A DNA stretch of 64,000 nt, from contig CAWCWD010000062.1 of NCBI GenBank assembly GCA_963799015.1, positions 51 through 64,050 on the forward strand. The letters are read 5' to 3'. Positions 1-64,000 of this stretch are shown here, one piece after another. Numbering within the stretch: position 1 is the first letter of the stretch; each line of letters begins with the position of its first letter. The stretch is from an uncultured Actinomycetota bacterium (GTDB lineage Bacteria > Actinomycetota > Actinomycetes > Actinomycetales > Microbacteriaceae). A program made the position numbers and the translations under genes. The notes beneath the pieces were generated by a model, which was not told where the DNA came from, did no database searches, and saw nothing but the letters and a program-made list of their open reading frames with translations.

Positions 1-354
1 CGGATGCCGCGTGAGACCGTCGCGGTCGTCGGCGCCGAGCAGCTGCTGCTGTCGAAGGCCGTGCGGCGCGTGGCATCCGTCGTCGGCCGTCGCGTGGTCG
101 TGGTGCCGTGGCCGGTGTGGGCGCAGTACGCGCTCGCGCAGGTGACCGAGTGGACCATGAAGGTGCCGCTCGTCGCGAAGGCCCAGGTGCGCATGCTCGC
201 CGAGGGCGTGACGGATGCCGCGCCGCCCGCGGCATCCGTGCCCGACGACCTGCTCCCCCGCCGCATGTTCACGGCCGAGCAGATCCGCAGCGCCCTGCCC
301 GAGCCCGGCGGGTTCGGATGGCGCGACCTGCGGGTCAGTGGCGGCTCCCGCTGA
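1..354 (+). CDS. 3' part of NAD(P)-dependent epimerase/NAD(P)H-binding protein (5' end outside window); near-identical copy of 13378-13722
   Basis: Translation matches the C-terminus of 12823..13722 almost residue for residue; about 8 nt differences over ~340 bp. Confidence 0.85.
   Translation, partial: RMPRETVAVVGAEQLLLSKAVRRVASVVGRRVVVVPWPVWAQYALAQVTEWTMKVPLVAKAQVRMLAEGVTDAAPPAASVPDDLLPRRMFTAEQIRSALPEPGGFGWRDLRVSGGSR
211..239. repeat. Perfect inverted repeat ACGGATGCCGCG-CCGCC-CGCGGCATCCGT, also at 1661-1689, 13588-13616 and 22995-23023
   Basis: 12-bp arms with a 5-nt loop, read directly at all four positions. Confidence 0.9.
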
Positions 355-456
355 GCGCTGACGCGAAGACCATCTGCGGTGATTTCACGATGAATGCCGA
401 TCCAAGGCGGATACGGGAGTACTATATTCAACAGATCGAATCTTTGGAGCCCTTTC

Positions 457-1032
457 ATGACCGCTGGCACTCTCGTACGATCGGCTCGCAAGAGTCGACG
501 GCTCACGCAGGCGAGCCTCGGGCGTCGCGCGCGCCTGACGCAGTCGCACCTCTCGCTCATCGAGGGAGACCGGCAGAACCCGTCATTCGACACCGTCGAG
601 CGGGCCCTGCGGGGCGCCGGTCACCGCCTGGTGGCCGTCCCCACGCTTCGAGACGACGCCGCCATCATCGCCTCCGACATACGAGCCGACCTGGCGTTCG
701 GGCGACCCGAGCGAGCACTTCGGCGGTTCATCCAGCTCAATGACAACCTGACGGCCGAGCACGGTGCCGTGCGGTTCGCGCTGGCGATCACCGAACCCGA
801 ATCGACGGGCTCCAAACAGTGGGACGCCGCGATCGCCGCACTCGTTGCGCATCACCTGGAGGCGGAGCAGCTGCCGGTTCCAGAGTGGGCGAGCCGACCG
901 TCACGCGTTCTCAAGCGTGCCTGGGTATTCGGAGTCGGCCCCTACACATTGGCGCCCGAGCTCGATCGCGTCCCCGCGGCGTTCCGTGAACGGCGCGTTC
1001 TCATCGACGTCGACACCCTGCGCAGCGTATGA
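457..1032 (+). CDS. XRE-family HTH protein, putative antitoxin
   Basis: N-terminal HTH (LTQASLGRRARLTQSHLSLIEGDRQNPSFDTV); C-terminal 'WDAAIAALV...PEW...VPAAFRERRV' resembles actinobacterial antitoxins paired with nucleotidyltransferases. Confidence 0.7.
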   Translation: MTAGTLVRSARKSRRLTQASLGRRARLTQSHLSLIEGDRQNPSFDTVERALRGAGHRLVAVPTLRDDAAIIASDIRADLAFGRPERALRRFIQLNDNLTAEHGAVRFALAITEPESTGSKQWDAAIAALVAHHLEAEQLPVPEWASRPSRVLKRAWVFGVGPYTLAPELDRVPAAFRERRVLIDVDTLRSV

Positions 1033-1093
1033 CCGCGGAAAGTCGCCGCGGCGCGCCCGATTGTGTTGCGCCCTCGCGCGCTAGGTTGGTGCA

Positions 1094-1642
1094 ATGCAGC
1101 CCGGTGAGGTCGGAATCGAGATCACGCCGATCCTGGCGGCCCCCTCGCTCGAACCGGAGTTCGCCGCTCAGCTCGACGCGCTTCTGCGCCGCACCTGCAA
1201 GATCGCCCGCGCGCTGACCGGCGCCGAGCTGGCGGCCGTCAAGCTCTGGGTCGGCGAGGACTCGTCGCAGGCACGCAAGTACTTCAGCATGAGCGAGAAA
1301 TACGCAGCGTTCCGCGACTTCCGAGTCGACCCGAAGGGCGACGGCCTGCACGGGATGAGGATCCCACCCGGCGAGGTCATCCGCCTGACCGAAGCCGAGG
1401 TGTTGTCGCATCCGCTCTACCAGGGCTTCGGCCCGTTCGCTGACGCCCACCCGCCGATGCGGGGATGGCTGGCCACGAGTGTCTGCGGCGACGACGGTCG
1501 AATCTACGGTCTGCTGCAACTGAGCGATAAGAGCGGTGGGCGCGACTTCGACGAATCCGACGAGGCGAACATCCACGAACTCGCAGCTCTGATCGGTGAG
1601 ACGCTCGACGCCCTTCGACTGGCCGCCCAGCGGCCGGCTTAG
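1094..1642 (+). CDS. Stand-alone GAF domain protein
   Basis: 'GFGPFADAHPPMRGWLA...IYGLLQLSDKSGGRDFDESDE' is a DosS-like GAF signature. Confidence 0.8.
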   Translation: MQPGEVGIEITPILAAPSLEPEFAAQLDALLRRTCKIARALTGAELAAVKLWVGEDSSQARKYFSMSEKYAAFRDFRVDPKGDGLHGMRIPPGEVIRLTEAEVLSHPLYQGFGPFADAHPPMRGWLATSVCGDDGRIYGLLQLSDKSGGRDFDESDEANIHELAALIGETLDALRLAAQRPA

Positions 1643-1656
1643 CTGATTGGGGTGCT

Positions 1657-1723
1657 CGTGACGGATGCCGCGCCGCCCGCGGCATCCGTGCCCGACGACC
1701 TTCGCCCACGGCACATGTTCACG
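1657..1723 (+). repeat. Intergenic remnant of epimerase 3' region (equivalent to 207-273)
   Basis: CGTGACGGATGCCGCG...GTGCCCGACGACCTTCGCCCACGGCACATGTTCACG encodes VTDAAPPAASVPDDLRPRHMFT. Confidence 0.9.
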
Positions 1724-1752
1724 CGGATTCACGGTCTACCCCCGAGCGGGCG

Positions 1753-1776
1753 AACGATATATCGTTGATATATCGT
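1753..1776. promoter_or_regulatory. Putative PadR operator, AACGATATATCGTT followed by a second GATATATCG
   Basis: Perfect AT-rich palindrome plus tandem copy directly upstream of the PadR gene. Confidence 0.65.
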
Positions 1777-1813
1777 CGAGACCCGGGCGAGCGCCCGGTT
1801 CAGGGAGGACATC

Positions 1814-2384
1814 ATGAGCGGTTCGTACAGGGGCGACGGCTTCACCGGTCCCTCGGGCGGGTGGGGGCAAGGCAGCCCCCCGACAGGGACTGTGGGAGGC
1901 CCTGGATCAACTTCGCGGCATGTTCGAGCAGAAGGTCGCGCCGCGCATGGGCCGCGGCGACGTCCGCGCGGCGGTGCTCGCGCTCCTCGCCGAGCAGCCG
2001 ATGCATGGCTACCAGATCATCAGCGAGATCGCCGAGCGCAGCGGCGGCGCATGGAAGCCGAGCGCGGGCTCGGTGTATCCGACGCTGCAGCTGCTCGCCG
2101 ACGAGGGGCTCATCAGCGCAGAGGAGGCGGACGGCCGCAAGACCTACTCGCTGACGGAAGCGGGGCGGGCCGAGGCCGAGGCATCCGCTGATCGTCCCGC
2201 GCCGTGGCAGACCCCGAGCGCGCGCGACTCCGGCACGGTCGGGGCGCTCCCGAAGGCCGGCATCGAGCTCGCACAGGCGGCGGCGCAGGTCGGGCGCACG
2301 GGCACTCCCGAGCAGGTCAAGCAGGCGGTCGACGTGCTCGACGACGCGCGTCGTCGTCTGTACTCGATCCTCGCTCAGGACTGA
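1814..2384 (+). CDS. PadR-family transcriptional regulator (apparent frameshift near 1890)
   Basis: RGDVRAAVLALLAEQPMHGYQII...PSAGSVYPTL; RBS GGAGGA before ATG 1814. Confidence 0.88.
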
Positions 2385-2389
2385 CCTCG

Positions 2390-4161: not shown

Positions 4162-4357
4162 TCGGAGCCGACACCGGCGACGTCGAGTCTCGGATGCTGC
4201 CGGTTTCACCGCGAACCTTCACGGGCGGTGGATGTCGCCTGCCAGGAGTGTCGAGCCGGATGCCTCGGCCAGGCGACTTCTCCTCCACAGCGGGCCGTCG
4301 GGCGAACTTCTCCACAGGGAATTTCCTGATCAGGGGCGATTTTCATGTGCGACCGGA

Positions 4358-4379
4358 TGTCAGTGGGTGGGTGCAGGAT
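4358..4379 (+). promoter_or_regulatory. RecA-NDp/PafBC-type DNA-damage promoter, probably leaderless
   Basis: TGTCAGTG-N8-CAGGAT versus consensus TGTCRgtg-N8-TAnnnT, 6 nt before ATG 4386. Confidence 0.55.
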
Positions 4380-4385
4380 CGAAGC

Positions 4386-6351: not shown

Positions 6352-6359
6352 GCAGGGAG

Positions 6360-6438: not shown

Positions 6439-6446
6439 TTCCTGTC

Positions 6447-7322: not shown

Positions 7323-7338
7323 GTGCTTCGGGCTGTCA

Positions 7339-7368
7339 GTGCCCGACGACCTTCGGCCGCGGCGCATG
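7339..7368 (+). repeat. Remnant of epimerase 3' region (VPDDLRPRRM)
   Basis: GTGCCCGACGACCTTCGGCCGCGGCGCATG aligns with 238-267 and 1688-1717. Confidence 0.75.
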
Positions 7369-12822: not shown

Positions 12823-13722
12823 GTGACCCAGCACCCCCGCACCGCGATCACCGGCGGCACCGGATTCGTCGGACGCCATCTGGCCGAACGGCTCGGGCCC
12901 GAGGCATCCGTCGTCATCTCTCGCCGCACCGGCGTCGACACCAGTGACGTCGACGCGCTCACGCGAGCGTTCGAGGGGTGCGAGGTCGTCGCGCACTGCG
13001 CGGGCATCAACCGCGAGATCGGCGACCAGACCTACCAGCGCGTGCACATCGAGGGCACCGCGAACGTGATCGAGGCGGCGAAGCGGGCCGGGGTGCGCAA
13101 GGTCATCATGCTGAGCTTCCTGCGGGCGCGGCCCGACTGCGGATCGCCATACCACGAGTCGAAGTGGGCGGCCGAAGAGCTGATCCGCGACTCGGGCCTC
13201 GACCACACGATCCTCAAGGCCGGCATGATCTACGGCCGCGGCGACCACCTCATCGACCACCTCAGCCACACCGTGCAGACCCTGCCGGTGTTCGCGACCG
13301 TCGGCTTCCGCGAGAAGCCCATCCGGCCCATCCCGATCGACGACCTCACCGACATCCTCGTGGCCGCGATCGACGGGCGGATGCCGCGTGCCACCGTCGC
13401 GGTCGTCGGCGCCGAGCAGCTACTGCTGTCGAAGGCCGTGCGGCGCGTGGCATCCGTCGTCGGCCGTCGCGTGGTCGTGGTGCCGTGGCCGGTGTGGGCG
13501 CAGTACGCGCTCGCGCAGGTGACCGAGTGGACCATGAAGGTGCCGCTCGTCGCGAAGGCCCAGGTGCGCATGCTCGCCGAGGGCGTGACGGATGCCGCGC
13601 CGCCCGCGGCATCCGTGCCCGACGACCTGCTCCCCCGGCGCATGTTCACGGCCGAGCAGATCCGCAGCGCCCTGCCCGAGCCCGGCGGGTTCGGGTGGCG
13701 CGACCTGCGCATCAGCGGCTGA
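12823..13722 (+). CDS. NAD(P)-dependent epimerase/dehydratase (atypical SDR), leaderless
   Basis: ITGGTGFVG Rossmann motif, YHESK; -10 TAGACT 6 nt before GTG. Confidence 0.92.
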   Translation: MTQHPRTAITGGTGFVGRHLAERLGPEASVVISRRTGVDTSDVDALTRAFEGCEVVAHCAGINREIGDQTYQRVHIEGTANVIEAAKRAGVRKVIMLSFLRARPDCGSPYHESKWAAEELIRDSGLDHTILKAGMIYGRGDHLIDHLSHTVQTLPVFATVGFREKPIRPIPIDDLTDILVAAIDGRMPRATVAVVGAEQLLLSKAVRRVASVVGRRVVVVPWPVWAQYALAQVTEWTMKVPLVAKAQVRMLAEGVTDAAPPAASVPDDLLPRRMFTAEQIRSALPEPGGFGWRDLRISG

Positions 13723-22928: not shown

Positions 22929-23032
22929 ACCGAGTGGACGATGAAGGTGCCGCTCGTCGCGGAGGCCCAGGTGCGCATGCTCTCCGAGGGCGTGACGGAT
23001 GCCGCGCCGCCCGCGGCATCCGTTCCCGACGA
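22929..23032 (+). repeat. Intergenic remnant of epimerase 3' region (equivalent to 145-248)
   Basis: 104 bp with 4 substitutions; TEWTMKVPLVAEAQVRMLSEGVTDAAPPAASVPD. Confidence 0.92.
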
Positions 23033-24250: not shown

Positions 24251-24826
24251 ATGGCAGAGGTACTGCTCTTCCACCACGCACTGGGCCCAACCGAGGGCTT
24301 GCATGCCTTCGCGGACGAGCTGCGTCGAGCGGGCCATACCGTGCACACACCTGACCTCTTCGAAGGGCGGACCTTCGACTCGATCGAGGCGGGCGTCGGT
24401 TACGCCAACGAAGTCGGCTGGGGCGAGATCATGGCGCGCGGCGAGCGCGCGGCGGAGTCGCTGACGAACGAGCTCGTCTACGGAGGCTTCTCGCTCGGAG
24501 TCGTGCCCGCGCAGAAGCTCGCCCAGACCCGCCCTGGCGCGAAGGGCGCGCTGTTCTTCTACTCGTGCCTTCTGCCCTCGGAGTTCGGCGCGTGGCCGGC
24601 CGGCCTCCCTGCGCAGATCCACGGGGCGGACGCCGATCCCATCTTCATGGAGGAAGGCGATGTCGATGCCGCCCGCGAGCTCGTCGAGGCGGCCGACGAG
24701 GCAGAGCTGTTCCTCTACCCCGGCGACCAGCACTACTTCGCGGACTCCAGCCTGCCGAGCTACGACGCGGACGCGACGAAGCTCCTCACGCAGCGCGTGC
24801 TCGAGTTCCTCGCGCGAATCGGCTGA
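24251..24826 (+). CDS. Dienelactone hydrolase-family protein
   Basis: GFSLG nucleophile elbow; YPGDQHYF. Confidence 0.9.
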   Translation: MAEVLLFHHALGPTEGLHAFADELRRAGHTVHTPDLFEGRTFDSIEAGVGYANEVGWGEIMARGERAAESLTNELVYGGFSLGVVPAQKLAQTRPGAKGALFFYSCLLPSEFGAWPAGLPAQIHGADADPIFMEEGDVDAARELVEAADEAELFLYPGDQHYFADSSLPSYDADATKLLTQRVLEFLARIG

Positions 24827-24860
24827 AGCCTGGCCCGACGAACATAACGCCGTGAACGCG

Positions 24861-28111: not shown

Positions 28112-28260
28112 GTCGAGGCAGCCGACGACGCCGAGCTCTTCTCTACCCCGGCGACCAGCACTACTTCGCCGACTCCAGCCTGCCGAGCTACGACGCAGAC
28201 GCGTCGAGGCTCCTCACACATCGCGTGCTGGAGTTCCTCGCGCGGAACGGCTGAAGCCTG
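28112..28260 (+). pseudogene. Duplicated 3' end of the dienelactone hydrolase gene (copy of 24683-24832)
   Basis: About 150 bp, mostly third-position differences, includes stop codon and following AGCCTG. Confidence 0.9.
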
Positions 28261-39047: not shown

Positions 39048-39307
39048 TGACCGACGCCGCCGCACGGCGACCCGCCCGGACCACCGCGGTCCGGGCGGGT
39101 TCCGCCGCCACCGTTGAGCTCGTGCGACGCGGATGCCGCGGCGTCGCGTGGTACGTCCGCGACCTGATGGGCGACAATGCCTACCGGGTCTACCTCGAGC
39201 ACCACCGCACGCAGCACGGTCCGGAGCAACCGCCGATGTCCGAGCGGGAGTTCTGGAGGCAGAGAATGGATGAGCAGGACCGAAACCCCGGGGCCCGCTG
39301 CTGCTGA
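39047..39307 (+). CDS. YbdD/YjiX (DUF466) family protein
   Basis: YLEHHR...PMSEREFWR...ARCC*; TGATG coupling to cstA. Confidence 0.9.
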   Translation: MTDAAARRPARTTAVRAGSAATVELVRRGCRGVAWYVRDLMGDNAYRVYLEHHRTQHGPEQPPMSEREFWRQRMDEQDRNPGARCC

Positions 39308-39325
39308 CGTGACGAGGGAGCGCAC

Positions 39326-40504
39326 ATGATCGACGCGATGTGGCTGCCCGTCGCCGCCGTCGCCGGGATCGCGCTCACGCTGCTCGCCCACTACGCATGG
39401 CGGATGGCGCGGGGCTCGCGCGACCTCGGCAGCGACGCCGAACGCGCGACCTTCCGCACCCTCTCGCTCGCCTCGCGCGCGGCCGTGCACCTGCGCGGCG
39501 GCCTCGAGACGGGCGAGGTGCACCGCGCGGCGCGCTCGCTGCGGGCGCTGCTCGGCAGCGAGGCGATCGCCATCGCCGATCGGAACGGCATCGTCTCGAT
39601 CGACGGCCGGCTCGACCTCGGGCCGACGGCGTGGCAGGTCGCGTCGAGCGTCATCGAGACCGGCCGACGGCAGGTGCTGTCGAACGCGATCGACGCCGTC
39701 GGCGCGCCGATCGTCGCCAACGGGCGCGTCGTCGGCGTCATCGTCGCGTTCGCAGCGAAGGCGCGCCCGCCGCTCGTGCGGGCCACGACCGAGGTGGCGA
39801 CGTGGTGCGGCGCGCAGATCGAGCTCGGCGAGCTCGAGACATCCCGCGCCGCCCTCGCCGAGGCCGAACTGCGTGCGCTGCGGGCGCAGATCAGCCCGCA
39901 CTTCGTCTACAACGCCCTGAGCGTGATCGCGTCGTACATCAGCACCGACCCCGAGCGCGCACGCGACCTGCTGCTCGACTTCGCCGACTTCATCCGGTAC
40001 ACCTTCCGGCGCCAAGGCGAGTTCACGACCCTCGCCGACGAGCTGAAGAGCGTGCACTCGTACGTCGAACTCGAACGCGCGCGCTTCGAGGAGCGCCTGA
40101 GCGTGACGCTGCGCATCGAGCCCGAGACGCTCGCGACCGTCATCCCGTTCCTCAGCCTCCAGCCGCTCGTCGAGAACGCGATCCGCCACGGCCTCGAGCC
40201 GCGCGAACAGGGCGGCACCGTCGTCATCTCATCGCGCGACGACGGCACCCACACCGAGATCACCGTCGACGACGACGGCGTCGGAATGGAACCGGCCGCG
40301 CTCCGCTCGCTGCTCGCCGACCGCGATCCCGCCGACCGCGTCGCGCACATCGGCATGCGCAACGTCGACTCCCGCATGCGCGGCATCTACGGCGACGACC
40401 ACGCGCTGGTCATCGAGACCAACCCGGGGGCGGGCACGATGGTACGCATGCGCATCCCGAAGTCGCAGCCGTTCAACGAGACCGAGCGGACGGCGAACGG
40501 ATGA
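39326..40504 (+). CDS. LytS-family sensor histidine kinase
   Basis: LRAQISPHFVYNAL; LQPLVENAIRHG. Confidence 0.93.
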   Translation: MIDAMWLPVAAVAGIALTLLAHYAWRMARGSRDLGSDAERATFRTLSLASRAAVHLRGGLETGEVHRAARSLRALLGSEAIAIADRNGIVSIDGRLDLGPTAWQVASSVIETGRRQVLSNAIDAVGAPIVANGRVVGVIVAFAAKARPPLVRATTEVATWCGAQIELGELETSRAALAEAELRALRAQISPHFVYNALSVIASYISTDPERARDLLLDFADFIRYTFRRQGEFTTLADELKSVHSYVELERARFEERLSVTLRIEPETLATVIPFLSLQPLVENAIRHGLEPREQGGTVVISSRDDGTHTEITVDDDGVGMEPAALRSLLADRDPADRVAHIGMRNVDSRMRGIYGDDHALVIETNPGAGTMVRMRIPKSQPFNETERTANG

Positions 40505-41281
40505 CGGTCGCTGACGCGGGCACCGGTGCGCGCGGGGGCGGCGGGCGCCGCACGATCGACGTGCTCATCGCCGACGATGAGCGCCCGGTCCTCGACGAAC
40601 TCGAGGTGCTCCTCCGGCGCGACGAGCGCGTCCGGCGACATCCGCCGCGCCGCATCGGGATCCGAGGCCGTGCGCCTGCTCGCGGAGCAGCCCGTGGACG
40701 CCGCGTTCCTCGATATCCACATGCCCGGGCTCTCGGGATTCGACCTGGCGCGTGCGCTCTCGCGGTTCGGCGAGCCGCCCGCCATCGTGTTCGTCACGGC
40801 CGACGAGGCCGGCGCCGTCGAAGCCTTCGACTTCCAGGCGATCGACTTCATCCTGAAACCCATCCGCCGCGAACGACTCCGCCGCGCGGTCGACCGGATC
40901 CTCGCCGGGCGCGACGCCGTGCCGGGAATGGAGTCGCCGCCCGACGAGACCATCCCCGTGCGCGTCGGCAACATCATGCGCGTCGTCCGGCGCAGCGAAG
41001 TGCGTTGGGTGCAGGCGCAGGGCGACTACTCGCGGCTCGTCACCGACACCGACAGCCACCTGATCCGCGAGCCGATCTCCGACCTCGAGGAGCGATGGGC
41101 CGCGGCGGGCTTCATCCGCGTGCACCGCTCGTTCCTCGTCGACCGCGGCGCCATCACCACCGTCAAGCTCGTCGGCGCGCACCCCACCCTCACCGTCGCC
41201 GGCGAGGAGATCCCCGTCAGCCGCCGGTCGATCCCGGTGGTGCGCGAGGCGATCCTGCAGCCCCCGGAGCCGGGGCGGTGA
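40501..41281 (+). CDS. LytR/AlgR (LytTR) response regulator (apparent frameshift near 40630)
   Basis: VLIADDE, LDIHMPG, FIRVHRSFLV, IPVSRR. Confidence 0.9.
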
Positions 41282-41670
41282 CCGGGCCCGAAGGAGGGCG
41301 CGGCCACGGCCGGCCCGTCCGCGAACGCGTGACGTCCGTCGACCGGTCCGCGAACCGGGCAGAACCGCTCGCGCGCACCGGCTCGTCGCCAGTGAGCGAG
41401 GCGGAATCGGTCTTCACGCGCGGACTCATGCGCGCGCAGGGGCGGCTCGCGGTGGCGTTCGTCCTCGTGTTCGTCGCGGTCGTCGCAGGCATCACGTTCG
41501 TGATCAGCCGCGTTCCGGCACTGCACGACGTCGTCATCTGGGGCGTGCCGCTGCCCTGGCTGATCCAGGCGTACGGCTATTACCCGGTCATCGTGGTGTT
41601 CGCGGTGGCATACACGGTCGCCGCGATGCGCGTCGAGCAGCGGTTCCGAGCCCTCGTGGAGCACGAATGA
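41278..41670 (+). CDS. Small two-TM protein (DUF485-like symporter partner)
   Basis: LMRAQGRLA...WGVPLPW; overlaps neighbouring genes. Confidence 0.75.
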   Translation: MTGPEGGRGHGRPVRERVTSVDRSANRAEPLARTGSSPVSEAESVFTRGLMRAQGRLAVAFVLVFVAVVAGITFVISRVPALHDVVIWGVPLPWLIQAYGYYPVIVVFAVAYTVAAMRVEQRFRALVEHE

Positions 41671-43154
41671 GCCCGTTGCTCGTGGCGGGGGCGATCGTGT
41701 TCGTCGTGATCGCGACATTCGCGATCAGCGCCTACGGCCTGCGGATCTCGCGGACCACGAGCGACTTCTTCGTCGCGTCGCGCACCGTGCGGCCTATCTG
41801 GAACGCCTCCGCCATCAGCGGCGAGTACCTGTCGGCCGGCACGTTCCTGGGGTTGTCGGGGCTCGTGCTCCTCTCTGGCTCCGAGGCGTTCTGGTTCCCG
41901 ATCGGCTACGCCGCCGGGTACTTCCTGGTGCTCGTGTTCGTCGCAGCGCCGCTCCGCCGGAGCGGCGCATACACGATCCCCGACTTCATCCACGCGCGGC
42001 TCGACTCGGTCGCGGCCCGGCGGGTCACGAGCGTGCTGGTCATCGCGATCGGATGGCTCTACATCGTGCCGCAGTTCCAGGGCGCTGCGCTCGCCCTCAA
42101 CGTGGTCGCCGGCATCCCGCCGTGGGTCGGGGCGGTCACCGTCGCGATCGTGGTCGCCGGCTCGGTCGCCGCCGGCGGCATGCGCTCCATCACGTTCGTG
42201 CAGGCGTTCCTGTTCTGGCTGAAGCTCGCGGCGCTCGCGGTGCCGGTGCTGTTCTTCGTGATCGCGTTCGGCCCGCACGAGCCGTCCATCGACCCCGAAC
42301 TCGTGTTCCCCGCCGAGCACGGCCCGGGTGGGCTCGACACCTACGCGACCGCCTCTCTGCTGCTCGCGCTGCTGCTCGGCACGATCGGGCTCCCCCACGT
42401 GCTCGTGCGCTTCTACACCAGCCCGACCGGCAGCTCGGCGCGCTGGACGACCGTCATCGTCATCGCGCTGATCAGCGTGTTCTACATGGTGTCCGGAACC
42501 ATCGGCCTCATCGCCCGCGCGACGGCGCCCGACCTCGCCCAGCCCGGCGTCGCCGACACGGTCGCGCTCCTGCTGCCGTCGCGGCTGATCCCCGGCGTCG
42601 CGGGCGACCTGCTCACGGCGCTGGTCATCGCGGGTGCGCTCGCGGCGTTCCTCGGCACGTCGTCCGGACTCGTCGTCTCGCTCTCGAGCGTCGTCAGCCA
42701 GGATCTCTTCCACGGCACGGTCCGCTCGTTCCGGTGGGCGGCGGTGTTCACCGCGGCGATCCCGCTCCTGGTCGCACTCGCCACGGTTCCGCAGGCACTG
42801 GTCACGTCGGTCGGCAACGTGTTCGTGTTCGCCGCCTCGGCGCTCTCCCCCGTCATCGTGCTCGGGATCTGGTGGCGCCGCCTCACCGCGCGGGGCGCCG
42901 TCGCGGGCATGCTCGTCGGCTCGATCCTGTGCGGCGCAGCCCTCGCCGCCTCGTCGGCGATCGGCCCCGGCGCGGGCCCGGTGGCCGCGCTGCTCGCGCA
43001 GCCCGGCGCGTGGACGATCCCGGCGGCGACGCTCGCCTGCGTCGTGGTCTCGCTGCTCGACAGGCGCAAGCCGGCGAACACCGAGCGGATCCTCAGCCGG
43101 CTGCACACGCCGGAGCGACGACGCGGCGATGCGACGGGCGCGGCGACCGAGTGA
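41667..43154 (+). CDS. Sodium:solute/cation-acetate symporter (ActP-like)
   Basis: SDFFVASR, AISGEYLSA, GLPHVLVRFY. Confidence 0.9.
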   Translation: MSPLLVAGAIVFVVIATFAISAYGLRISRTTSDFFVASRTVRPIWNASAISGEYLSAGTFLGLSGLVLLSGSEAFWFPIGYAAGYFLVLVFVAAPLRRSGAYTIPDFIHARLDSVAARRVTSVLVIAIGWLYIVPQFQGAALALNVVAGIPPWVGAVTVAIVVAGSVAAGGMRSITFVQAFLFWLKLAALAVPVLFFVIAFGPHEPSIDPELVFPAEHGPGGLDTYATASLLLALLLGTIGLPHVLVRFYTSPTGSSARWTTVIVIALISVFYMVSGTIGLIARATAPDLAQPGVADTVALLLPSRLIPGVAGDLLTALVIAGALAAFLGTSSGLVVSLSSVVSQDLFHGTVRSFRWAAVFTAAIPLLVALATVPQALVTSVGNVFVFAASALSPVIVLGIWWRRLTARGAVAGMLVGSILCGAALAASSAIGPGAGPVAALLAQPGAWTIPAATLACVVVSLLDRRKPANTERILSRLHTPERRRGDATGAATE

Positions 43155-43291
43155 CCTTCCGAGGAGCGGTCGTCGGCCGGCGGCATGCCGTTCACGTCGT
43201 CACGAGCCCGGTCGCGGCTCAGCCGCGGCACGCTCCGCAGTGGCGTCCGACTTCGGGCTGCGCGTAGATTGGGCGCAACGAGGAGGTTCGC

Positions 43292-45252
43292 GTGACACCG
43301 CCACCACCCGTGAGTCCACCGTCTCCCACGTCGACGAGCAGCAGTCGCGCGCCGTCGCCGAGGCCGCCCGCGAACAGGACTGGCGCAAGCCGAGCTTCGC
43401 CAAGGGCCTGTATCTGGGGCAGTTCGACCTGTCGCTGATCCATCCGCACCCTCGACCGGAACCGGACCGGCGCGAGCGGGGCGAGCAGTTCCTCGCCGCG
43501 CTCGAGGCGTACCTGCGAACCGTCGACGGCGCGCGTCATCGAGCGGGAAGCGCGCATCCCGGACGAGGTCTTCCAGGGGCTCGCCGAGCTCGGATGCTTC
43601 GGGATGAAGATCCCGGTCGAGTACGGCGGCCTCGGGCTGGGGCAGCACTACTACAATCGCGCCCTGGTGCTGATCGGGTCGGTGAACGCCAGTCTCGGCG
43701 CGCTGTTGTCGGCGCACCAGTCCGTCGGCGTGCCCGAACCGCTCGTGCTCGCGGGCACGGAGGAGCAGAAGCGGCGGTTCCTGCCGCGCTGCGCGAAGGG
43801 CGCCATCAGCGCCTTCCTCCTCACCGAACCGGAGGTCGGCTCGGACCCGGCCCGCCTGCAGGCCACCGCGCTGCCGACCGAGGACGACGACGGCGTACGT
43901 CCTGAACGGCACGAAGCTGTGGACCACCAACGGGGTGGTCGCCGAACTGCTCGTCGTGATGGCGCGCGTGCCGAAGTCGGACGGGCACCGCGGCGGGATC
44001 AGCGCGTTCGTCGTCGAGGCCGACTCCCCCGGCATCACCGTGCATCGCCGCAACGCGTTCATGGGGTTGCGCGGAATCGAGAACGGGCTGACCTCGCTGC
44101 GGAACGTGCGCGTGCCGCGCGAGAACCTGATCGGCCGCGAGGGCGAAGGCCTCAAGATCGCGCTGACCACCCTCAACGCCGGGCGGTTGGCGATCCCGGC
44201 CATCTGCGCCGGGGCGGGCAAGTGGAGCCTGAAGATCGCACGCGAGTGGTCGCGCGAGCGCGTGCAGTGGGGCCGACCCGTCGGCGAACACGCCGCGGTC
44301 GCCCACAAGATCGCGTTCATCGCCGCGACGACCTTCGCGCTGGAGGCGGTGGTCGACCTGTCGGGGATGCTCGCCGACGAGGACCGCAAGGACATCCGCA
44401 TCGAGGCGGCGCTCGCCAAGATGTGGGCATCTGAGATGGCGTGGCAGATCGCCGACGAGCTGGTGCAGATCCGCGGCGGCCGCGGGTTCGAGACCGCGGC
44501 GTCGCTCGCCGCCCGCGGCGAACGCGCCGTCGGCGCCGAGCAGCTGCTCCGCGACATGCGGATCAACCGGATCTTCGAGGGCTCGACGGAGATCATGCGC
44601 CTGCTGATCGCGCGGGAGGCCGTCGACGCGCACCTCACGGCCGCGGGAGGTCTGATCGATCCGCAACTGGACCTGGCCCGCAAGATGAAGGCCGCCGCCT
44701 CGGCCAGCGGTTTCTACGCCCGCTGGCTGCCGCAACTGGTCGCCGGCAAGGGCGACCTGCCGACGTCGTACGACGAGTTCGGCGCGCTCGCGCCCGCACC
44801 TCCGCTACGTGGAGCGCACCAGCCGCAAGCTGGCGCGCGCGACCTTCTACGGGATGGCGCGCTGGCAGGGCGGCTTGGAACGCAAGCAGGGATTCCTCGC
44901 CCGCGTGGTCGACATCGGCGCCGAGCTGTTCGCCGTGTCGGCGTCCTGCGTGCGCGCGGCGATGATCGCCGCCGACACACCGGCGCAGGGCAAGACCGCG
45001 TACCAGCTCGCCGACACGTTCGCCGAGCAGTCCCGCCATCGCACCGAGCGACTGCTGGATGCGCTGTGGCGCAACACCGATGCCGCCGACGAACGTCTCG
45101 CCGCCCGCGTGCTCGACGGCCACTACGCCTGGCTGGAGGAGGGCATCATCGATCCCAGCGAGGGCACCGGCCCGTGGATCACCGAGGAGGTGCCCGCCGA
45201 CGCGACGGAGAACGTCGCCCGCCGCGTCATCCGGCCGACGGAAGACGTGTGA
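43292..45252 (+). CDS. Acyl-CoA dehydrogenase (several apparent frameshifts)
   Basis: FLLTEPEVGSD, NGTKLWTTNG, RIFEGSTEI; RBS AGGAGG. Confidence 0.88.
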
Positions 45253-45255
45253 GCC

Positions 45256-45789
45256 CTAAGCCGGCGCGTACCTGGCGGCGATGATGCCCGAGTCGTAGGT
45301 CTGCACGCCGAGCAGTCGCAGGCCGACCAGATGCGGCGTGCGCAGCCGGTCCAGGGCGTCGCCCACCAGGAACGGATGGATACCGGCGTGTACCTCGTCG
45401 ACCAGCCCGGCGTCGACGAGCGCGGCCGCCAACTCGCCGTAGCCGTGCGAGATGATCGACTCGTACTGGTCGCGGAGGCGTCTCACCGTCTCGGCCACGT
45501 CGCCCTCGATCAGGGTCGCGTTCCAGTCGAGCGGACCCGACAGCGTCCTCGAGGCGACGTACTTCGGGAGCGCGTTGTAGTACGCGGCGAAGCCGCGGTC
45601 ATCGGTCTGCGCGGGCCAGTACTCACGGAAGAACTCGTAGCTCTCCCGGCCGAGCAGCACCGCGTCGGCACCGAAGACGAGCTCGTCGGAGGCTCGCTGC
45701 AATCCTGGATCCTCCGCATCGAACCACTGCTCCATGTGGTCGAATGCCCCGTCGAGCGTCATTTCGAATGAAATCGTCACCTTACCCAT
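45256..45789 (-). CDS. Dihydrofolate reductase-like protein
   Basis: MTLDG, LLGRESYE, PKYVASRTL. Confidence 0.87.
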   Translation of the reverse strand: MGKVTISFEMTLDGAFDHMEQWFDAEDPGLQRASDELVFGADAVLLGRESYEFFREYWPAQTDDRGFAAYYNALPKYVASRTLSGPLDWNATLIEGDVAETVRRLRDQYESIISHGYGELAAALVDAGLVDEVHAGIHPFLVGDALDRLRTPHLVGLRLLGVQTYDSGIIAARYAPA

Positions 45790-45894
45790 GCGCCCAGCCT
45801 CCTCCGTTCCACGCCGGATGTCACCGCCCGCGCGGCAAGGTCGCGAGCGGCGGCGGCCGCCTGACGACGCGTCGCCGCGATCCGGCCCGTCCGC

Positions 45895-45933
45895 AGCGCG
45901 CCGCCCGAACCCGGCGGGTTCGGGCGGCGCGCT
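45895..45933 (-). terminator. Perfect 18-bp-stem hairpin downstream of the DUF4097 gene
   Basis: AGCGCGCCGCCCGAACCC-GGC-GGGTTCGGGCGGCGCGCT. Confidence 0.7.
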
Positions 45934-45959
45934 CTGCAACAGACTGTGATGGGTAGCGC

Positions 45960-46628
45960 CTAGAGGCTGCGCGCGTCGATGTCGCCGTAGGCGGTGGACG
46001 CCTGGATGTTGAGTTCGGCGGCGGCGCCCTCGGTGTTCTTGAGCGCGTTGTGAATACGGCCGTAGGTGGTGCCGGCGTCGAGGGTGGCGGATGCTCCGGC
46101 GGCGGCGCCGACCGACACGTTGCCGGCCTGGGTGCGCAGCACGACCGTGCCGCGCACGGCCTCGGCGATCGTGATGTCGCCCTTCGAGGTGCTGATCTCG
46201 GCAGGCCCGTTGAGGCGGCCGACCGAGACGTCACCGGCGAGGGCGGTGAGGCGGACGCTTGCCGCCTCGTCGATCTTGACCGAGCCGCTCGCGCCCTCGA
46301 AGGCGACGTCGCCGAGGCGTCCGACGCCGCGGAACTCGGCGGCAGCCGCCTTCGCCTCGACGCGGGAACCCGCGGGCAGCTGCACCGTCACCTCGATCAT
46401 TCCCGAGGGGCCGAGGAGCTGGTTGCCCGCCGGGGTCGCGATGCGCACGACGCCGTCGCGGTACTCGACCGTGGTCTGCTCGGCCGCTTTCACGTCGCGG
46501 CTCTTCGAGGCATCCGCGGGGAGGACCTCGACCGCGGTGTCGGCCCGATCTGCGGCGATGACCTGGACGCGCCCCGCCGAGATGTCGAGGACGGCGGCGA
46601 TCGGTGCGGGGGTGTCGAACTTCTGCAT
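45960..46628 (-). CDS. DUF4097 beta-strand repeat protein
   Basis: MQKFDTPAPI; repeated 'T..GD(V/I)' strands. Confidence 0.85.
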   Translation of the reverse strand: MQKFDTPAPIAAVLDISAGRVQVIAADRADTAVEVLPADASKSRDVKAAEQTTVEYRDGVVRIATPAGNQLLGPSGMIEVTVQLPAGSRVEAKAAAAEFRGVGRLGDVAFEGASGSVKIDEAASVRLTALAGDVSVGRLNGPAEISTSKGDITIAEAVRGTVVLRTQAGNVSVGAAAGASATLDAGTTYGRIHNALKNTEGAAAELNIQASTAYGDIDARSL

Positions 46629-48733: not shown

Positions 48734-48946
48734 ACCTGCAGCGTATGGGCGTCGCGGGCAGGCGGCCAAGCGTCCGATGCGGCGAGCGGCATCGCAGCGG
48801 CATCCGTGCCGACCGGCGGCGTCACGAGCGTGAAGCCTCCGGTGCGACCGCTAGCCTTGGCCGGAGCGAACCACGAAAGGCAGTGCGGATTGAGGACGAA
48901 TGACCCGATCAGGGACGTGGGCTTGCGCCCGTCCGAAACGGTCCCG

Positions 48947-55359: not shown

Positions 55360-56571
55360 TTATCGGGTTGCAAGGGATTCGGTGTCGGGCACGGATGCCG
55401 CGACCGGGGCCTTGAGGAAGCTGGTCGCCCATGCGACGGCGACGGCCGCCACGGCGATGACGATCCCCGTGACGACGGCGAACGGGACTCCCCCGCCGTC
55501 GATCGCGAGACCGCCGGCGAACGCGCCGAACGCGATGCCGGCGTTGACGGCCGAGGCGGGCAGCGACGACGCGAGCGGCGCGCCGGGACCGGCGAGCTTG
55601 ACGACGCGGTACTGGATCGACGGACCCGTGCCCATGCCGAAGAGCCCGATGCCGAGCACGGCGACGGCCACGAGCCACGGGTTCGATCCGAAGACGAGCA
55701 GGGCGACGAGCGATCCCGTCACGCCGATCGCGCCGATGATCAGCGAGCGCGAGGCGTTGGCGTCGGCGAAGCGTCCGCCGCCGAACGAGCCGATCGCGGT
55801 CGCGGCGCCGTACACGAGCAGGAACACCGACACGATCGGCCCCGAGACATCCGTCACCTGGTTCAGGAACGGCACGAGGTAGGTGATCGCCGCGAGCATG
55901 GCCGCGAACGTCAGGAAGCTCACCGCCAGCACCGCGAGCACCCGCGGGGCGAACGCGTGCCTGGCCTGGCCGATCGCCCGGCTGTCGCGCGGGGTCGGCA
56001 CCGAGGGGAGCACGACGATCGCGAGCACCAGGACGACGACGCCGGCCGCGACGACAGCGGCGAACGATCCGCGCCAGCCGACCGCCTGCCCGAGCAGCGT
56101 GCCCAATGGCAGCCCCAACGCGCTCGACATCGCGAAGCCCGAGATGATCACGGCCATCGCGCGCCCGGTGCGCTCGGGGGGCACGATCGAGGTCGCCGTC
56201 ACCATCGCGGCCGCGATGAACAGCCCCTGCACCGCGCCGATGACGACCCGAGCGCCGACGAAGAGCGGGTAGTCGGCGACCAGCGCCGGCAGCAGGTTGG
56301 CGCCGACGAACACCGCGGTCGCGGTGACCAGCACGTGCCGGCGATCGAACCGCGTCGTCAGGAACGTCAGCAGCGGGCCGCCGATCGCGAGGCCGAGCGC
56401 ATTGGCGGTGACCAGTGCGCCGGCCGCCGGCACCGAGACGGCGAGGTCGGCGGCGATCAGGTCGATCATGCCGACGACGAGCATCTCGGCGCAGCCCATC
56501 ACGAACGCCCCGGCGAACAGTACGGCGAGCACCCGCGCAGAACGCGTCGACGCTGCTCGAGTCGTGGTCAT
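55360..56571 (-). CDS. MFS transporter (DHA1/AraJ-like)
   Basis: FVMGCAEMLVVG...LGLPLGT...GWR; RBS GGAGGAGG. Confidence 0.9.
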   Translation of the reverse strand: MTTTRAASTRSARVLAVLFAGAFVMGCAEMLVVGMIDLIAADLAVSVPAAGALVTANALGLAIGGPLLTFLTTRFDRRHVLVTATAVFVGANLLPALVADYPLFVGARVVIGAVQGLFIAAAMVTATSIVPPERTGRAMAVIISGFAMSSALGLPLGTLLGQAVGWRGSFAAVVAAGVVVLVLAIVVLPSVPTPRDSRAIGQARHAFAPRVLAVLAVSFLTFAAMLAAITYLVPFLNQVTDVSGPIVSVFLLVYGAATAIGSFGGGRFADANASRSLIIGAIGVTGSLVALLVFGSNPWLVAVAVLGIGLFGMGTGPSIQYRVVKLAGPGAPLASSLPASAVNAGIAFGAFAGGLAIDGGGVPFAVVTGIVIAVAAVAVAWATSFLKAPVAASVPDTESLATR

Positions 56572-58910: not shown

Positions 58911-58959
58911 GCCCCACTGCCGGGCTGCCGTCGCGTGCTGCCGGGACGCTGCCCGGGCG

Positions 58960-59404: not shown

Positions 59405-59474
59405 GGCGGCCACCTCCCTGAACGGTCGGCGCGTCGTTGCCCGACCTATATTGATGACAGTATCATTCTCCTTA

Positions 59475-60132
59475 ATGTCAGAAGTGTCAAGACGTCCGTA
59501 CGACGCGACGCGTCGTCGCCAGCAGGCGGCCCGAACGCGGGCGCGCATCATCGAGGTCGCCGGGCGGCTGTTCGTGGAACGCGGGTACGCAGGAACCACG
59601 ATCCCCGCGATCGCCGGCGAGGCCGGCGTGGCCGTGGAGACGGTCTATCGCTCCGCGAGCGGGAAGGCCGGGCTGCTGGCCGACGCCGTCCGGGCCGCCG
59701 TAGCGGGTGGCGCGGAGCGCGCGGAGGTGCCGGTCACCGAACGGCCCGCGATCCGGCGGATCACAGGAGGAGGTGGATCCGGTTCGGCAGCTGCAGCTGT
59801 ATGCGGCGACGCAGCCCGGGATCTGGTCGCGCGTCGGCCCGCTCCTTCGCGTGCTCGACGCCGCGGCCAACAGCGACGCCTCGCTGGTCGAACTCCGCGA
59901 CCAGATCGCCGCCGAGCGGCGGCACGGCCTGCGAGACGGGTTCGGCCGGATGCTCGAGCAGCGCGGCGTGCTGCGTGACGGCGTCACCGCCGAGCGCGCC
60001 GGCGACATCGTGTACGCCGTGTGCGGACAGGCCAACTACGTGGCGCTCGTCGGCGACTGCGGCTGGACGGAGGAAGCCTACGAGTCCTGGCTGGCTGAGA
60101 CGCTGGTCGCCGCGCTGCTCCCTCCACGGTAG
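59475..60132 (+). CDS. TetR-family regulator (apparent frameshift near 59765)
   Basis: RRPYDATRR...GTTIPAIAGEAGVAVETVY. Confidence 0.85.
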
Positions 60133-61722
60133 GAATCGCGCTCAGTCTCCAGAGCAGCCGGCGTTGCCGCGTCGAGCCGGTCCTCGAAGAAGAATCGCGA
60201 GAGGCGCGCTCGGAGGCGCTGTGTCCAACGCACGCGACCGCCGGATGCCTCCAGCGCCAACGGGGTGTGCGTCTCGACGTCGAGCAGCCGCCATCGTTCG
60301 TACTCGTTCAGCCGCTGGTGGACCTCGATGTACTCGCCCCCGGGAAGACGTACGATCCGGCCGGTCTCGAACCCGTGCAGCAGGAGGTCGCGGTCCTTGC
60401 GCTGGAGGGCGATGCAGACCCGTCGCGCAACACTGAACGCGATGATCGGCCCGGCGACCAGCAGGATCTGCAGGGCGAGCACGACCCCTTCGATCGTGAG
60501 GCTGAAGGCGACCGCCATGAGATCCGCGCTTCCGGCGGCCCAGAGCGTGCCGTAGAACACGATTCCGGCGAAGCCGATGCCGGTCCTGGTCGGCGTGTTC
60601 CGCGGGCGGTCGAGCAGGTGGTGGTCGCGGTGGTCGCCGGTGATCCACTCCTCGATGAACGGATACGTGGCGACGAGCAGGAGGAAGACGCTGATCACCG
60701 CCAACGGTGCGAGCAGGGCGAGCGTCCACGTCCGGTCGAATGCGACGATCTCCCAGCCCGGTGGCACGAGTCGGAGCGCACCGTCGAGGAAGCCGGTGTA
60801 CCAATCCGGCTGGCTGCCGGCGCCGGCATTGCCGGGTGAGGCCGGGCCGTACAGCCAGACGGGGTTGATCGTGACGGTGACGGAGACCAGCAGCAGGATG
60901 CCGGTGACGATGAGGAAGAGCCCGCCGGCACGTGCAGCCGCGTCGGGAAGGAGCGGTATGCCCACGACGTTCGCCTCCGTGCGCCCGGGGCCCGAGAACT
61001 GCGGCGGCTTGGCCCGGTACGTGATCGCGATGCGGATGGCGATGAGCAGCACGAGGATCACGGGTACGACGGCGACGTGGAGCGGGTAGAGGTTCTCGAT
61101 GATCTGCCCCGGGAACGCCCCTCCGAAGAACAGGTCCTTCAGCCAGGTCCCGACGACCGGAATGCCGAGCAGGATGCCTTCGAAGATGCGCAGCCCCGTT
61201 CCCGAGAGCATGTCGTCGGGAAGGGCGTATCCGCTCCACCCGCCGGCGAGCGCGGTGATCAGGATCAAGAAGAGCAGGACCCAACCCGCGCGCCGCGGCT
61301 TGCGGAACGCACCGGTGAAGAACGTGACCAGGAGCTGCCCGATCAGGGCTGCGGGCAGCAGCAGTGCGGCCCAGTGATGGGCCTGCCGAAGGAGCAGCCC
61401 GCCCGGAACCTCGAACGAGATGTGCAGCGTCGACGCGAACGCCTTCGACACCTCCTGGCCCTGCAGGGTCGGAACCCGTCCGTCGTACACGACCGTCGTA
61501 CTCGATGGGGTGAAGAAGAACATCAGGATGACGCCGGTCACCATGATGACCGGCAAGGCAGGCGAGCGCGATCACCCCGAACATGTTCGACCAGTGCACG
61601 GGCACCGTGCGATGGCGCAGGTCCTCGAGCACCGCAGCACCCCGCTTGCCGACCGTCGTCCGTGCGACGTGGCTGGAGAGCCGACCCGTCAGGCTGGAGC
61701 GTGGCATCCGCTCGACCGGCAT
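60078..61722 (-). CDS. qcrB: Orphan cytochrome bc1 cytochrome b (QcrB) paralog lacking heme bH ligands (apparent frameshift near 61560; 3' end may be near 60142)
   Basis: HWS, RQAHHWAA, FFTGAFRKPR, GYALPDDMLSG, SQPDWY, LLDRPR, HGFETG; RBS AGAAAGGAG. Confidence 0.88.
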
Positions 61723-61752
61723 CTCGTCTCCTTTCTGTTCTCCTACCCATAC

Positions 61753-61779
61753 GACACCGCAGCGGTCTGATTTGTGACA
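61753..61779 (-). promoter_or_regulatory. ECF41-type promoter TGTCACA-N16-TGTC upstream of the qcrB paralog
   Basis: Same -35 and spacing as the promoters at 6360-6438. Confidence 0.6.
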
Positions 61780-61823
61780 GTGGAGGCCGACCTCGGCGAG
61801 CTGGATGCCGCCATCGCGAGGCG

Positions 61824-62475
61824 TCAGAGCGGACGAACCGGCTGACGCAGCACGGTGCGCAGCTTCTCCGGCGCCGTGCGCCGGGCATCGCTGAGGTACA
61901 CCTCGTGGTGCGGGCCGTTGAAGGTGAGGCGCTGCTGCGGCATCCATTCGTCGTGCAGGCGCGCAAGGGTCGGCGCTTCATCGTCGTACGACCCGACGTG
62001 GAGGATCTGCGCCGACGGTCCCTCGTGCAGGTGCGCGAGGCGAAGCTGGTCGAGTGCGGGGTTCTCACGACCGCCCGACTTCGAGATCTTCGCGCGAATG
62101 GTGTCGACCGCGGCGGCGACGGCCTCCTCGTCGATCCAATCGGGTTGGGCGATCAGCATCGTCCAGCTCCACGCGCCCTTGTCGCGCGCGACGAAGGCGC
62201 CCTGATCCTCCGCCCACCAGAGCCCCTCGAGCGGTGCGACGACGAAGTCCCGCTCGAGCATCCGCTTGCTGGCGAACTTCACCGCATAGCCCACCCCGAA
62301 CAGCGCCTCGACGGCGTCGCGGTACCACGCAGCCGTGTTGGGATCGCCCTGCCCGTCGACCGCGAGGTACCGCATCGGTGGCACATCGACGATGGCGAAC
62401 TCTTTCGCCGACGGCGCGTACAGCTCCGGATGCTCCCGCTTGACGTCGTACTTCTCGTTCGCATCGGGCGGCCAT
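61824..62475 (-). CDS. GyrI-like small-molecule binding protein (start uncertain, indel near 5' end)
   Basis: YLAVDGQGDPN, VAPLEGLWW, HVGSYDDE, HHEVYLSD...KLRTVLRQP. Confidence 0.85.
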
Positions 62476-62551
62476 GGCGGGAGGCGTACGCCCCGGGTCG
62501 GACAGTTCCGTGACCGGATTCCATCGCGGCCGAATGCGAAGCCCGACGCCG

Positions 62552-63011
62552 TCAGGGCGACCGCGGCGTGAGGCGGATGACCGGGATCTCCCGGTCGGTG
62601 ATCCGCTCGTATCGGGCGAATCCCGATGCCGTGCGCCGTGACCTGCCGCCATGCCGCCTCGCGCTCGTCGCCGTGCAGCTGCTCCGGCGTGACCTCGATG
62701 CGCTGACCGGCGAACTCGACCCGCACTCGGTCGGGGTGCGCCGCGATGTTGTAGTACCACGCGGGGTTCCGGGGCGCGCCGCTCGCCGACGCCACGATGA
62801 GCTTCGTGTCGCCCTCGCCGGGGAACCATCGCACCGGAGTCATCCGCTCGACGCCGGTCTTCTTCCCGATCGTGACGAGCACCAGCTTGTCACCGGGCTT
62901 CGCGTCCTTCCGGCGCATGCGCTCCACCATCTTCTGGTTCCCCCACCGCTCGAGCCGGTTGCGGCCGGGCTGGCGGGCACCTCGGGTTCCGTTCGGAGTA
63001 TCGAAGGCCAT
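62552..63011 (-). CDS. F420-dependent nitroreductase/quinone reductase (Ddn-like; apparent frameshift near 62625)
   Basis: TIGKKTGVER.TP...VASASGAPRNPAWYYNI...TDREIPVIRL. Confidence 0.85.
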
Positions 63012-63144
63012 GCGCGACGCCTCCTCGGGTGGCGATCCTTCCCTCAATCATCCCGCGATTCGGCGGGTCGTGCTGTCAGGCACCGGCGAACCGTGCACTG
63101 GCAGGGCCTCCCTCGCCGACGGAACCCGACGTAGCGTCGAGCGG

Positions 63145-64000
63145 GTGAACGAAACACTCGAACTCAACAACGGCGTCACGATGCCGGCGCTCGGCTTCGG
63201 CGTCTTCCAGACGCCCCCGGCCGAGACCGTGAGCGCCGTGGCATCCGCTCTGCAGGTCGGTTACCGCCACATCGACACCGCGGCCGCGTACCTGAACGAG
63301 CGGGAGGTCGGCGAGGCGATCCGCCAGTCGGGCCTCGACCGCCACGACATCTTCATCGAGACGAAGGTGTGGATCAGCGACTACGGCTACGACGAGACCC
63401 TGCACGCGTGGGAGAAGAGCACCCGCAAGCTCGGCGTCGACACCCTCGACCTGCTGATCCTGCACCAGCCGATGCCCGCCCACTTCGACCGCACCATCGA
63501 GGCGTATCGCGCCCTCGAGACGCTGCTGGCCGACGGCAAGGTCCGCGCGATCGGCGTCAGCAACTTCATGCCCGACCACCTCGCGACGCTGCTCGAGCAG
63601 ACGAGCGTCGTGCCGGCCGTGAACCAGGTCGAGGTGCACCCGTACTTCTCACAGCCCGAGGTGCGTGCAGCGGATGCCGCGCACGGCATCCTCACGCAGG
63701 CGTGGTCGCCGATCGGCGGCATCACGTTCTACCGCGGCGAGGGCAAGGGCACGCTGGCCGACCCGGTGATCGGCGGCATCGCCGACGCGCACGGCAAGAC
63801 GCCTGCACAGGTCATGCTGCGGTGGCACCTGCAGGAGGGCCGATCGGCCATCCCGAAGTCGGTGCGCGCCGAGCGCATCGCCGAGAACTTCGACGTCTTC
63901 GACTTCGAACTCACCGCCGCGGAGCTCGCGGCCATCGACGCGCTCGACACCGGCGAGCGCGGCGGCCCCGACCCGGCATCCATCACGCCCGAGATCTTCT
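63145..64000 (+). CDS. Aldo/keto reductase (2,5-DKG reductase-like), runs off the window, leaderless
   Basis: LNNGVTMPALGFGVFQ, IDTAAAY, IGVSNF, IPKS; -10 TAGCGT 7 nt before GTG. Confidence 0.92.
   Translation, partial: MNETLELNNGVTMPALGFGVFQTPPAETVSAVASALQVGYRHIDTAAAYLNEREVGEAIRQSGLDRHDIFIETKVWISDYGYDETLHAWEKSTRKLGVDTLDLLILHQPMPAHFDRTIEAYRALETLLADGKVRAIGVSNFMPDHLATLLEQTSVVPAVNQVEVHPYFSQPEVRAADAAHGILTQAWSPIGGITFYRGEGKGTLADPVIGGIADAHGKTPAQVMLRWHLQEGRSAIPKSVRAERIAENFDVFDFELTAAELAAIDALDTGERGGPDPASITPEIF

Follow-up and report, generated by a model that had tools for sequence, protein, structure and literature searches.

The stretch analysed here (the window) comprises 64,000 nucleotides of contig CAWCWD010000062.1, from an uncultured member of the Microbacteriaceae whose 67-contig draft genome (4.27 Mb, 71% GC) belongs to Agromyces. 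The subject is a short dispersed word, (C)GGATGCC(GC), which is found throughout the window (positions 1-64000) on both strands, 59 times as the 8-mer CGGATGCC and 44 times as a 9-mer. The word is strongly enriched, with a GGAT core that is strict and flanks that are graded; it is conserved at silent sites, turns over by point change, differs in dialect among clades and is spaced separately on each strand, in a family that has a full set of competence genes. To judge from these genome statistics, it appears to behave like an uptake sequence. The reading we favor, tentatively and at a little under an even chance, is that the word is an orientation-sensitive self-tag, read by a protein and spread by biased natural transformation.

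Enrichment, layout and turnover of the word

An exact count of the 9-mer in the window gives 26 copies of GGATGCCGC and 18 of GCGGCATCC, its two orientations, where Markov models of order 2 and order 3 predict 2.9 and 4.5, respectively; under both orders it is the highest-ranked 9-mer of the window. Inside called genes there are 31 of these copies, in sense and antisense frames, and 13 lie outside. An earlier, sequence-only reading of the window had counted 24 and 16 copies by hand and described the word as over-represented, on both strands, in several frames and in intergenic DNA, all of which is borne out. The density in the window is typical of the whole genome, which has ~1 copy per kb on both strands: the 10-mer CGGATGCCGC occurs 2,662 times where 109 copies are expected, and parts of the word rank top among genome k-mers for k = 7-11.

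Genes were called with our own hexamer gene finder in an assembly rich in frameshifts. In the 3,249 called genes the 10-mer occurs 1,474 times, compared with 126 +/- 6 when synonymous codons are shuffled within each gene (11.7-fold), and the excess over the shuffle is seen in all six frames (2- to 72-fold). The sequence-only reading had proposed that its suggestion would fail if the enrichment disappeared under such a codon-preserving shuffle; the word passes this test. Asp is encoded by GAT at 602 of the 636 places where GAT completes the word, versus 14% overall. Before GAT-GCC, codons with C in second place have G as their last base 892 times and C 137 times, while before GAC-GCC the corresponding numbers are 119 and 653. 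Several positions are coupled in this way, including by C/G transversions, and thus a single hypermutable base is excluded as the cause. The tripeptides DAA, AAS, RHP and GCR are found at 1.6-3 times expectation, and the reverse-order tripeptides are mostly less enriched. One mismatch in the GGAT core brings the count to 0.6-2.3 times expectation, whereas mismatches in the flanks leave part of the enrichment, at 9-15 times expectation for the variable 3' flank position; a strict core with graded flanks would be expected where a protein binds.

About 60% of copies are inside called genes, on both strands, and the density is greater outside called genes than inside, although the fraction outside is overstated because the gene calls suffer from the many assembly frameshifts. 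The flanks are mostly unique, with only 139 of 2,657 copies sharing a 12-nt left flank. Many genes are split by frameshifts across the assembly (for example, at C65:43400-49200; leuS is in five pieces and comEC in three), probably reflecting sequencing indels or error, and it is because of this splitting that completeness is 64% at 4.27 Mb.

The two orientations of the 10-mer are balanced in the genome (1,344 and 1,318 copies) and in every large contig, up to 400 kb (heterogeneity p 0.68); judged from this contig-wise balance in a draft genome without a located origin, there is no replichore bias. Overall spacing is near random. Same-strand pairs, however, are depleted at separations of 50-1,000 bp (fraction 0.29-0.48), returning to 0.5 beyond 1 kb, whereas four of five control words are mostly above 0.5. 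Neighboring copies alternate strand 55.6% of the time (z 6.6), and the same-strand depletion also holds inside genes and in another genus. The density of the word rises to 4.6 per kb between convergent genes and has a maximum 0-30 nt downstream of stop codons, where two copies often make up the arms of a hairpin. There is an excess of inverted pairs closer than 100 bp, but such close inverted pairs account for only ~9% of 7-mer copies. The longest word-free gaps, of as much as 15 kb, mostly fall in DNA with a GC content of 65-69%, and 14 kb of prophage-like sequence in a relative contain 2 copies.

Conservation was surveyed at orthologous gene sites in up to 24 Agromyces genomes and, for silent positions, in clean relatives rather than the frameshift-rich assembly. 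The survey yielded 98 distinct sites (114 including outgroup-only sites), with 59 present in a single genome only; 7% are in highly conserved protein columns, compared with 33% of the background. Between close genome pairs, 1-9% of GAT codons inside the word differ, versus 22-54% of those outside; for GCA, the figures are 6% and 34-68%. In a two-state model of three genomes, loss rates at three silent positions are 25-100 times lower inside the word than at matched controls, a contrast somewhat inflated by conditioning on the intact remainder of the word. Preferential conservation at silent positions, the other test on which the sequence-only reading had staked its suggestion, is therefore upheld. 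Orthologues differ at the word by substitutions, with indels uncommon (11 of 155), and sites come about through point changes. A parsimony tally from the three-genome set (30 losses, 5 gains) was set aside, since parsimony infers too many losses of a state that is common and the background was skewed alike.

All 24 Agromyces genomes are enriched in the 9-mer, whereas 16 single genomes representing other families of the order show no enrichment, with a mild rise in one. Most Microbacteriaceae carry the word, in a patchy pattern: Agromyces genomes have 500-1,080 copies of the 8-mer per Mb, most Microbacterium genomes 270-830 and Cryobacterium genomes 370-490, with 75-120 in Curtobacterium, Leucobacter and a Rathayibacter-like clade. 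The two bases after CGGATGCC vary by Agromyces clade (GC, TC or CC). Two Microbacterium genomes and one of another genus have a CGGATCC dialect at 1,850-2,300 copies per Mb, and some other 8-mer-poor genomes use GGATGC with a free flank. A related word, CGTATGCC, is abundant in a different family of the order (f20), at 100-250 copies per Mb in six of nine genomes (G390, G407, G423, G468, G495 and G507). A literature search found no paper describing the word, with most subscription journals outside its coverage.

Biased transformation as the favored reading, and its rivals

In the process that we favor, a sequence-specific protein would bind the word on incoming DNA during natural transformation, such that fragments or strands with the word would be imported or recombined more frequently. 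Successive rounds of this biased recombination would then fix gains and remove losses wherever proteins tolerate them, a molecular drive as proposed for the DNA uptake sequence (DUS) of Neisseriaceae and the uptake signal sequence (USS) of Pasteurellaceae. Reading would depend on orientation and reach ~0.5-1 kb, which would fit import of one strand. Transformation would presumably proceed via a Tad/Flp pilus with ComEA and ComEC, and the hairpins after stop codons may be a secondary use of the word as terminators.

DUS and USS, through which Neisseria and Haemophilus tell their own DNA from other DNA, are enriched between convergent genes and form hairpin arms after stops (bioRxiv 10.1101/2025.10.24.684340), prefer poorly conserved protein positions (PMC2817400), diverge into clade dialects (PMC3630211) and, in the case of USS, consist of a core plus flanks (PMC7811141). 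The Agromyces word resembles them as a non-palindromic word of 8-10 bases at ~1 per kb on both strands, in genes and spacers, exceeding codon and composition nulls, strand-balanced on draft contigs and conserved at silent sites. It also shares their strict core with graded flanks, permissive protein positions, enriched tripeptides, hairpins after stops, clade dialects and scarcity in acquired DNA (PMC2817400, PMC3630211, PMC7811141). It differs in its unrelated sequence, its Gram-positive host with Tad/Flp pili, its use of codons that are rare instead of preferred, a much smaller number of copies in terminators, the mutual repulsion of same-strand copies and a weak enrichment in some lytic phages.

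Among the genes of the genome are comEA, comEC and dprA as well as three tad/flp clusters, and the closest named relatives of its ComEA are all from Agromyces. Because comEC is present in 80 of 80 relatives, and adnA (discussed below) in every genome tested, neither discriminates motif presence. One tad cluster (contig C50, ~150.6-155.1 kb) occurs in 42 of the 46 genomes that have some dialect, compared with 5 of the 20 that have none. Two tad clusters of this kind are necessary for the transformation of Micrococcus luteus (PMC4322843). We rank biased transformation first because the word matches DUS and USS in its permissive placement, its terminator hairpins, its dialects and its scarcity in acquired DNA, and because the tad link matches them too. 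The sequence-only reading had suggested an analogous uptake, recombination or methylation signal; the likeness to DUS, USS and the cyanobacterial HIP1 holds at the sequence level (codon nulls, silent sites, dialects, hairpins), with methylation the weakest part, as the only shared methyltransferase is nearly the same whatever the motif state.

A number of observations weigh against transformation. Gain rates in the two-state model are 1-4 times control, with intervals so wide that drive is not separable from locally lower mutation. On a four-gene tree, the tad association reduces to nine independent tad/motif pairs, with four concordant, none discordant and five tied (sign test p ~0.06), and the thresholds of this comparison were chosen, and dialects added, after the counts were known. 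Four motif-rich genomes lack a C50-type cluster, and word-free families have it. In ComEA, ComEC and three minor pilins, no residue follows the presence or dialect of the word more closely than housekeeping proteins do, with only 2-3 GGATCC genomes to compare. In the literature searched, neither transformation or binding data for Microbacteriaceae nor any report of separate per-strand spacing of DUS or USS was found. Finally, five Microbacterium phages were tested by codon shuffle (a reversed-word control was dropped, as it contains a stop triplet and under-counts). Fork, Hager and Juicer carry the word at expectation, but the related lytic phages OneinaGillian and Hyperion have 11 genic copies versus ~3 (3.5-4-fold, z 4-5), with the word ranking 9 and 23 of ~13,000 8-mers and with host-like flanks. 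This enrichment is not readily explained by host uptake, and mildly favors a role inside the cell. The word is avoided neither in the host nor in any of the five phages, which excludes a restriction target.

Some further features of these phages and pilus genes can be mentioned. Juicer (L266) has an enriched word of its own, GGCCACAC, with 30 genic copies (z 17.5 over the codon shuffle). In three unrelated genomes, the putative competence pilus cluster has a tadA gene interrupted around codon 130-155 by inserts of 7-12 kb (L150, at G361:C24:241293-252602, where an integrase-like gene adjoins; G355:C11:193238-201863; G260:C1:2604407-2617706), which look like mobile elements targeting a putative competence gene. 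The sequence TTATCCACAG is present at G000:C50:155095-155107, ~30-40 nt upstream of tadA, with no match in the 180 nt upstream of comEA. The third tad/flp cluster (G000:C11:13300-20800) has its own prepilin-peptidase-like gene and is patchy among relatives.

A somewhat unlikely alternative is a Chi-like polar signal in double-strand-break repair, in which the translocating helicase-nuclease AdnAB or another repair enzyme is switched by one orientation of the word. Two-ended breaks would need both orientations, so that each strand is tiled separately and no replichore bias arises. Both the same-strand depletion and the strand alternation of neighbors are consistent with this, as are the two enriched phages with their host-like flanks and the lack of avoidance in all five; the genome also has adnAB with both Walker A motifs. 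Like the Chi sites of RecBCD and AddAB, the word is non-palindromic, over-represented in core DNA and apparently orientation-sensitive. However, known Chi is leading-strand-polarised and occurs in same-strand runs (PMC8022716), whereas here there is no strand bias and neighbors alternate, and at ~1 per kb the word is five times denser than Chi in Escherichia coli. AdnA is found in 60 of 60 genomes regardless of motif density. A Chi for the host's AdnAB was not found in the literature searched, and a 2026 paper on AdnAB structure names Chi solely in its references (PMC13000450). We place this explanation second to transformation because it accounts for the polarity and the phages, while the leading-strand polarity of Chi is absent.

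It is unlikely that the word results from a methylation- or repair-directed bias, in which a mark or a bound protein leads mismatch repair or gene conversion to favor the intact word, or lowers mutation there, with no fitness role needed, as modeled for HIP1 (PMC4390886). The HIP1 word, GCGATCGC, is similarly family-wide and conserved at silent sites and between genes, with patchy losses and variant words, and correlates with DNA-transfer genes (PMC5861425, PMC4390886, PMC13756078). It is palindromic and sharp, whereas the main form CGGATGCC is non-palindromic (only the GGATCC dialect of a few relatives is a palindrome) and graded, with no methyltransferase tracking it. A repair bias would agree with the turnover, in which loss is strongly suppressed and gain not clearly raised. 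A candidate is an orphan beta-class N6/N4 methyltransferase related to M.RsrI and CcrM (L131:5921-6820, G000:C51:55735-56476), with 66-90% identity across Microbacteriaceae including streamlined genera. It is present in all 36 motif-rich genomes scored, and its six losses are all in motif-poor genomes, but it is also in 17 of 23 8-mer-poor genomes, and it differs little between GGATGC, GGATCC and motif-poor genomes, its residues covarying with the word no more than background (with only 2-3 GGATCC genomes). No shared C5, D12 or type I methylase was found. A graded profile of 8-10 bases with shifting flanks is unlike a methylase site. One-site hypermutation is excluded by the coupled positions, and same-strand spacing would require an additional assumption.

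Alternatively, the word could be the site of an abundant chromosome-organising or protective protein and be kept by selection, a role proposed for HIP1 (PMC5861425). The even coverage of core DNA, the graded profile and conservation both in and between genes would suit such a protein, but many close lineages have no word or a swapped one, and a double-strand binder gives no reason for strand-specific spacing; we consider it decidedly unlikely.

A terminator element, a repetitive extragenic palindromic (REP) type of repeat or a mobile-element footprint is very improbable. Some copies do form GC-rich hairpins after genes, as REP and REPIN elements do, in line with the peak after stops and the excess of close inverted pairs. 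Most copies of the word, though, stand alone in coding sequence, lack shared flanks and stem from point change, as seen in the ~9% of copies in close inverted pairs, the ~60% in genes on both strands, the small number of copies that share a left flank and the few indels. The codon shuffle, layout and substitution-type turnover thus largely refute such elements as the primary cause, and with unrelated flanks and mainly genic copies the label REP-like, applied in the sequence-only reading, is not supported. The REP-like repeats of the genome are a different family, with fixed ends GGTTGAGGAG and GTCTCGAAAC and a variable hairpin between them, in ~130-230 copies, none in the window.

A by-product of codon or peptide usage is scarcely credible, since the raised tripeptides that might suggest it are outweighed by the excess over the protein-preserving shuffle, which refutes it, and by the rare codons used and the greater density outside called genes.

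Hairpins and repeats in the window

On the + strand of the window, the 9-mer is located at 2, 213, 1663, 3343, 3373, 13379, 13590, 15735, 16316, 18678, 20746, 21378, 22997, 30410, 31105, 32907, 34575, 39131, 48234, 50791, 51225, 55393, 58265, 58327, 61803 and 63672. On the - strand, it lies at 229, 1679, 2810, 4820, 4872, 7767, 13606, 15222, 19547, 21172, 23013, 31602, 34305, 47723, 48797, 53916, 56653 and 61937. These include every site listed in the sequence-only reading, with the one given there as 48798 beginning at 48797 as a 9-mer. The interval 39179-46508 (~7.4 kb; the right end is approximate, from contig C62:39179-46558 less the 50-nt window offset) is among the longest 8-mer-free stretches of the genome.

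Ten copies, the number roughly estimated beforehand, are in four repeats of an epimerase tail. An inverted word pair forms a hairpin at 212-238, in the 3' part of the first epimerase-like gene copy, where it reads Asp-Ala-Ala and Ala-Ala-Ser; the RNA fold of 205-250 has -27.6 kcal/mol (z -3.7). Further copies of this pair are at 1662-1688 (21 nt past the stop of gene 1094-1642), 13589-13615 (inside gene 12823-13722) and 22996-23022 (in a non-coding duplicate of the gene tail). An independent inverted pair at 63671-63691 is inside gene 63145-64023 (-22.2 kcal/mol, z -2.5). The repeated 3'-end pieces of the one epimerase-like gene (window 1-360, 1649-1717, 13378-13719, 22929-23032, 7336-7368 and 45890-45937) are confined to this contig and resemble successive insertions restoring a gene end.

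An MFS gene carries in its final codons, at 55384-55402 on the minus strand, a 19-bp match to the epimerase hairpin arm, at the place that the sequence-only reading had given. This extension, however, has only seven copies in the genome, three of them from the repeated epimerase tail, and the 8-nt flank of the match occurs 7 times among 1,973 sites, with four other flanks equally or more common. Most likely, the match consists of the word and a flank that is common, and does not reflect shared ancestry. The suggestion that the word seeds module junctions is not supported: one repeat family has a word hairpin, but a second duplication (24713-24832 and 28141-28260) is 677-1,817 nt from the nearest 8-mer, compared with a random median of 403 nt. 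Among the window duplications and the 19-bp match, no general role of the word at junctions was found.

Implications for the Microbacteriaceae

Only in Neisseriaceae and Pasteurellaceae is sequence-selective DNA uptake established, and evidence for cyanobacterial HIP1 has lately been added. A word with the marks of DUS and USS in a large Gram-positive family of soil and plants makes selectivity in Actinobacteria directly testable, as strains with the word, with another dialect and without the word are found within single genera. If the uptake reading is true, barriers to gene flow between clades are predicted and genetic tools could improve; if uptake is unaffected, the word would still indicate a polar DNA-reading protein that overrides codon bias at thousands of sites. 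It is quite possible, if somewhat less than evenly probable, that DNA is recognized in a sequence-selective and strand-polar manner, in a step unlike ComP, in the Microbacteriaceae and also, through a related word, in at least one further family of the order. This would be either the first Gram-positive uptake sequence, acting via Tad/ComEC single-strand import, or a non-replichore Chi-type switch of AdnAB, and its specificity would have switched repeatedly, rewriting thousands of sites per genome.

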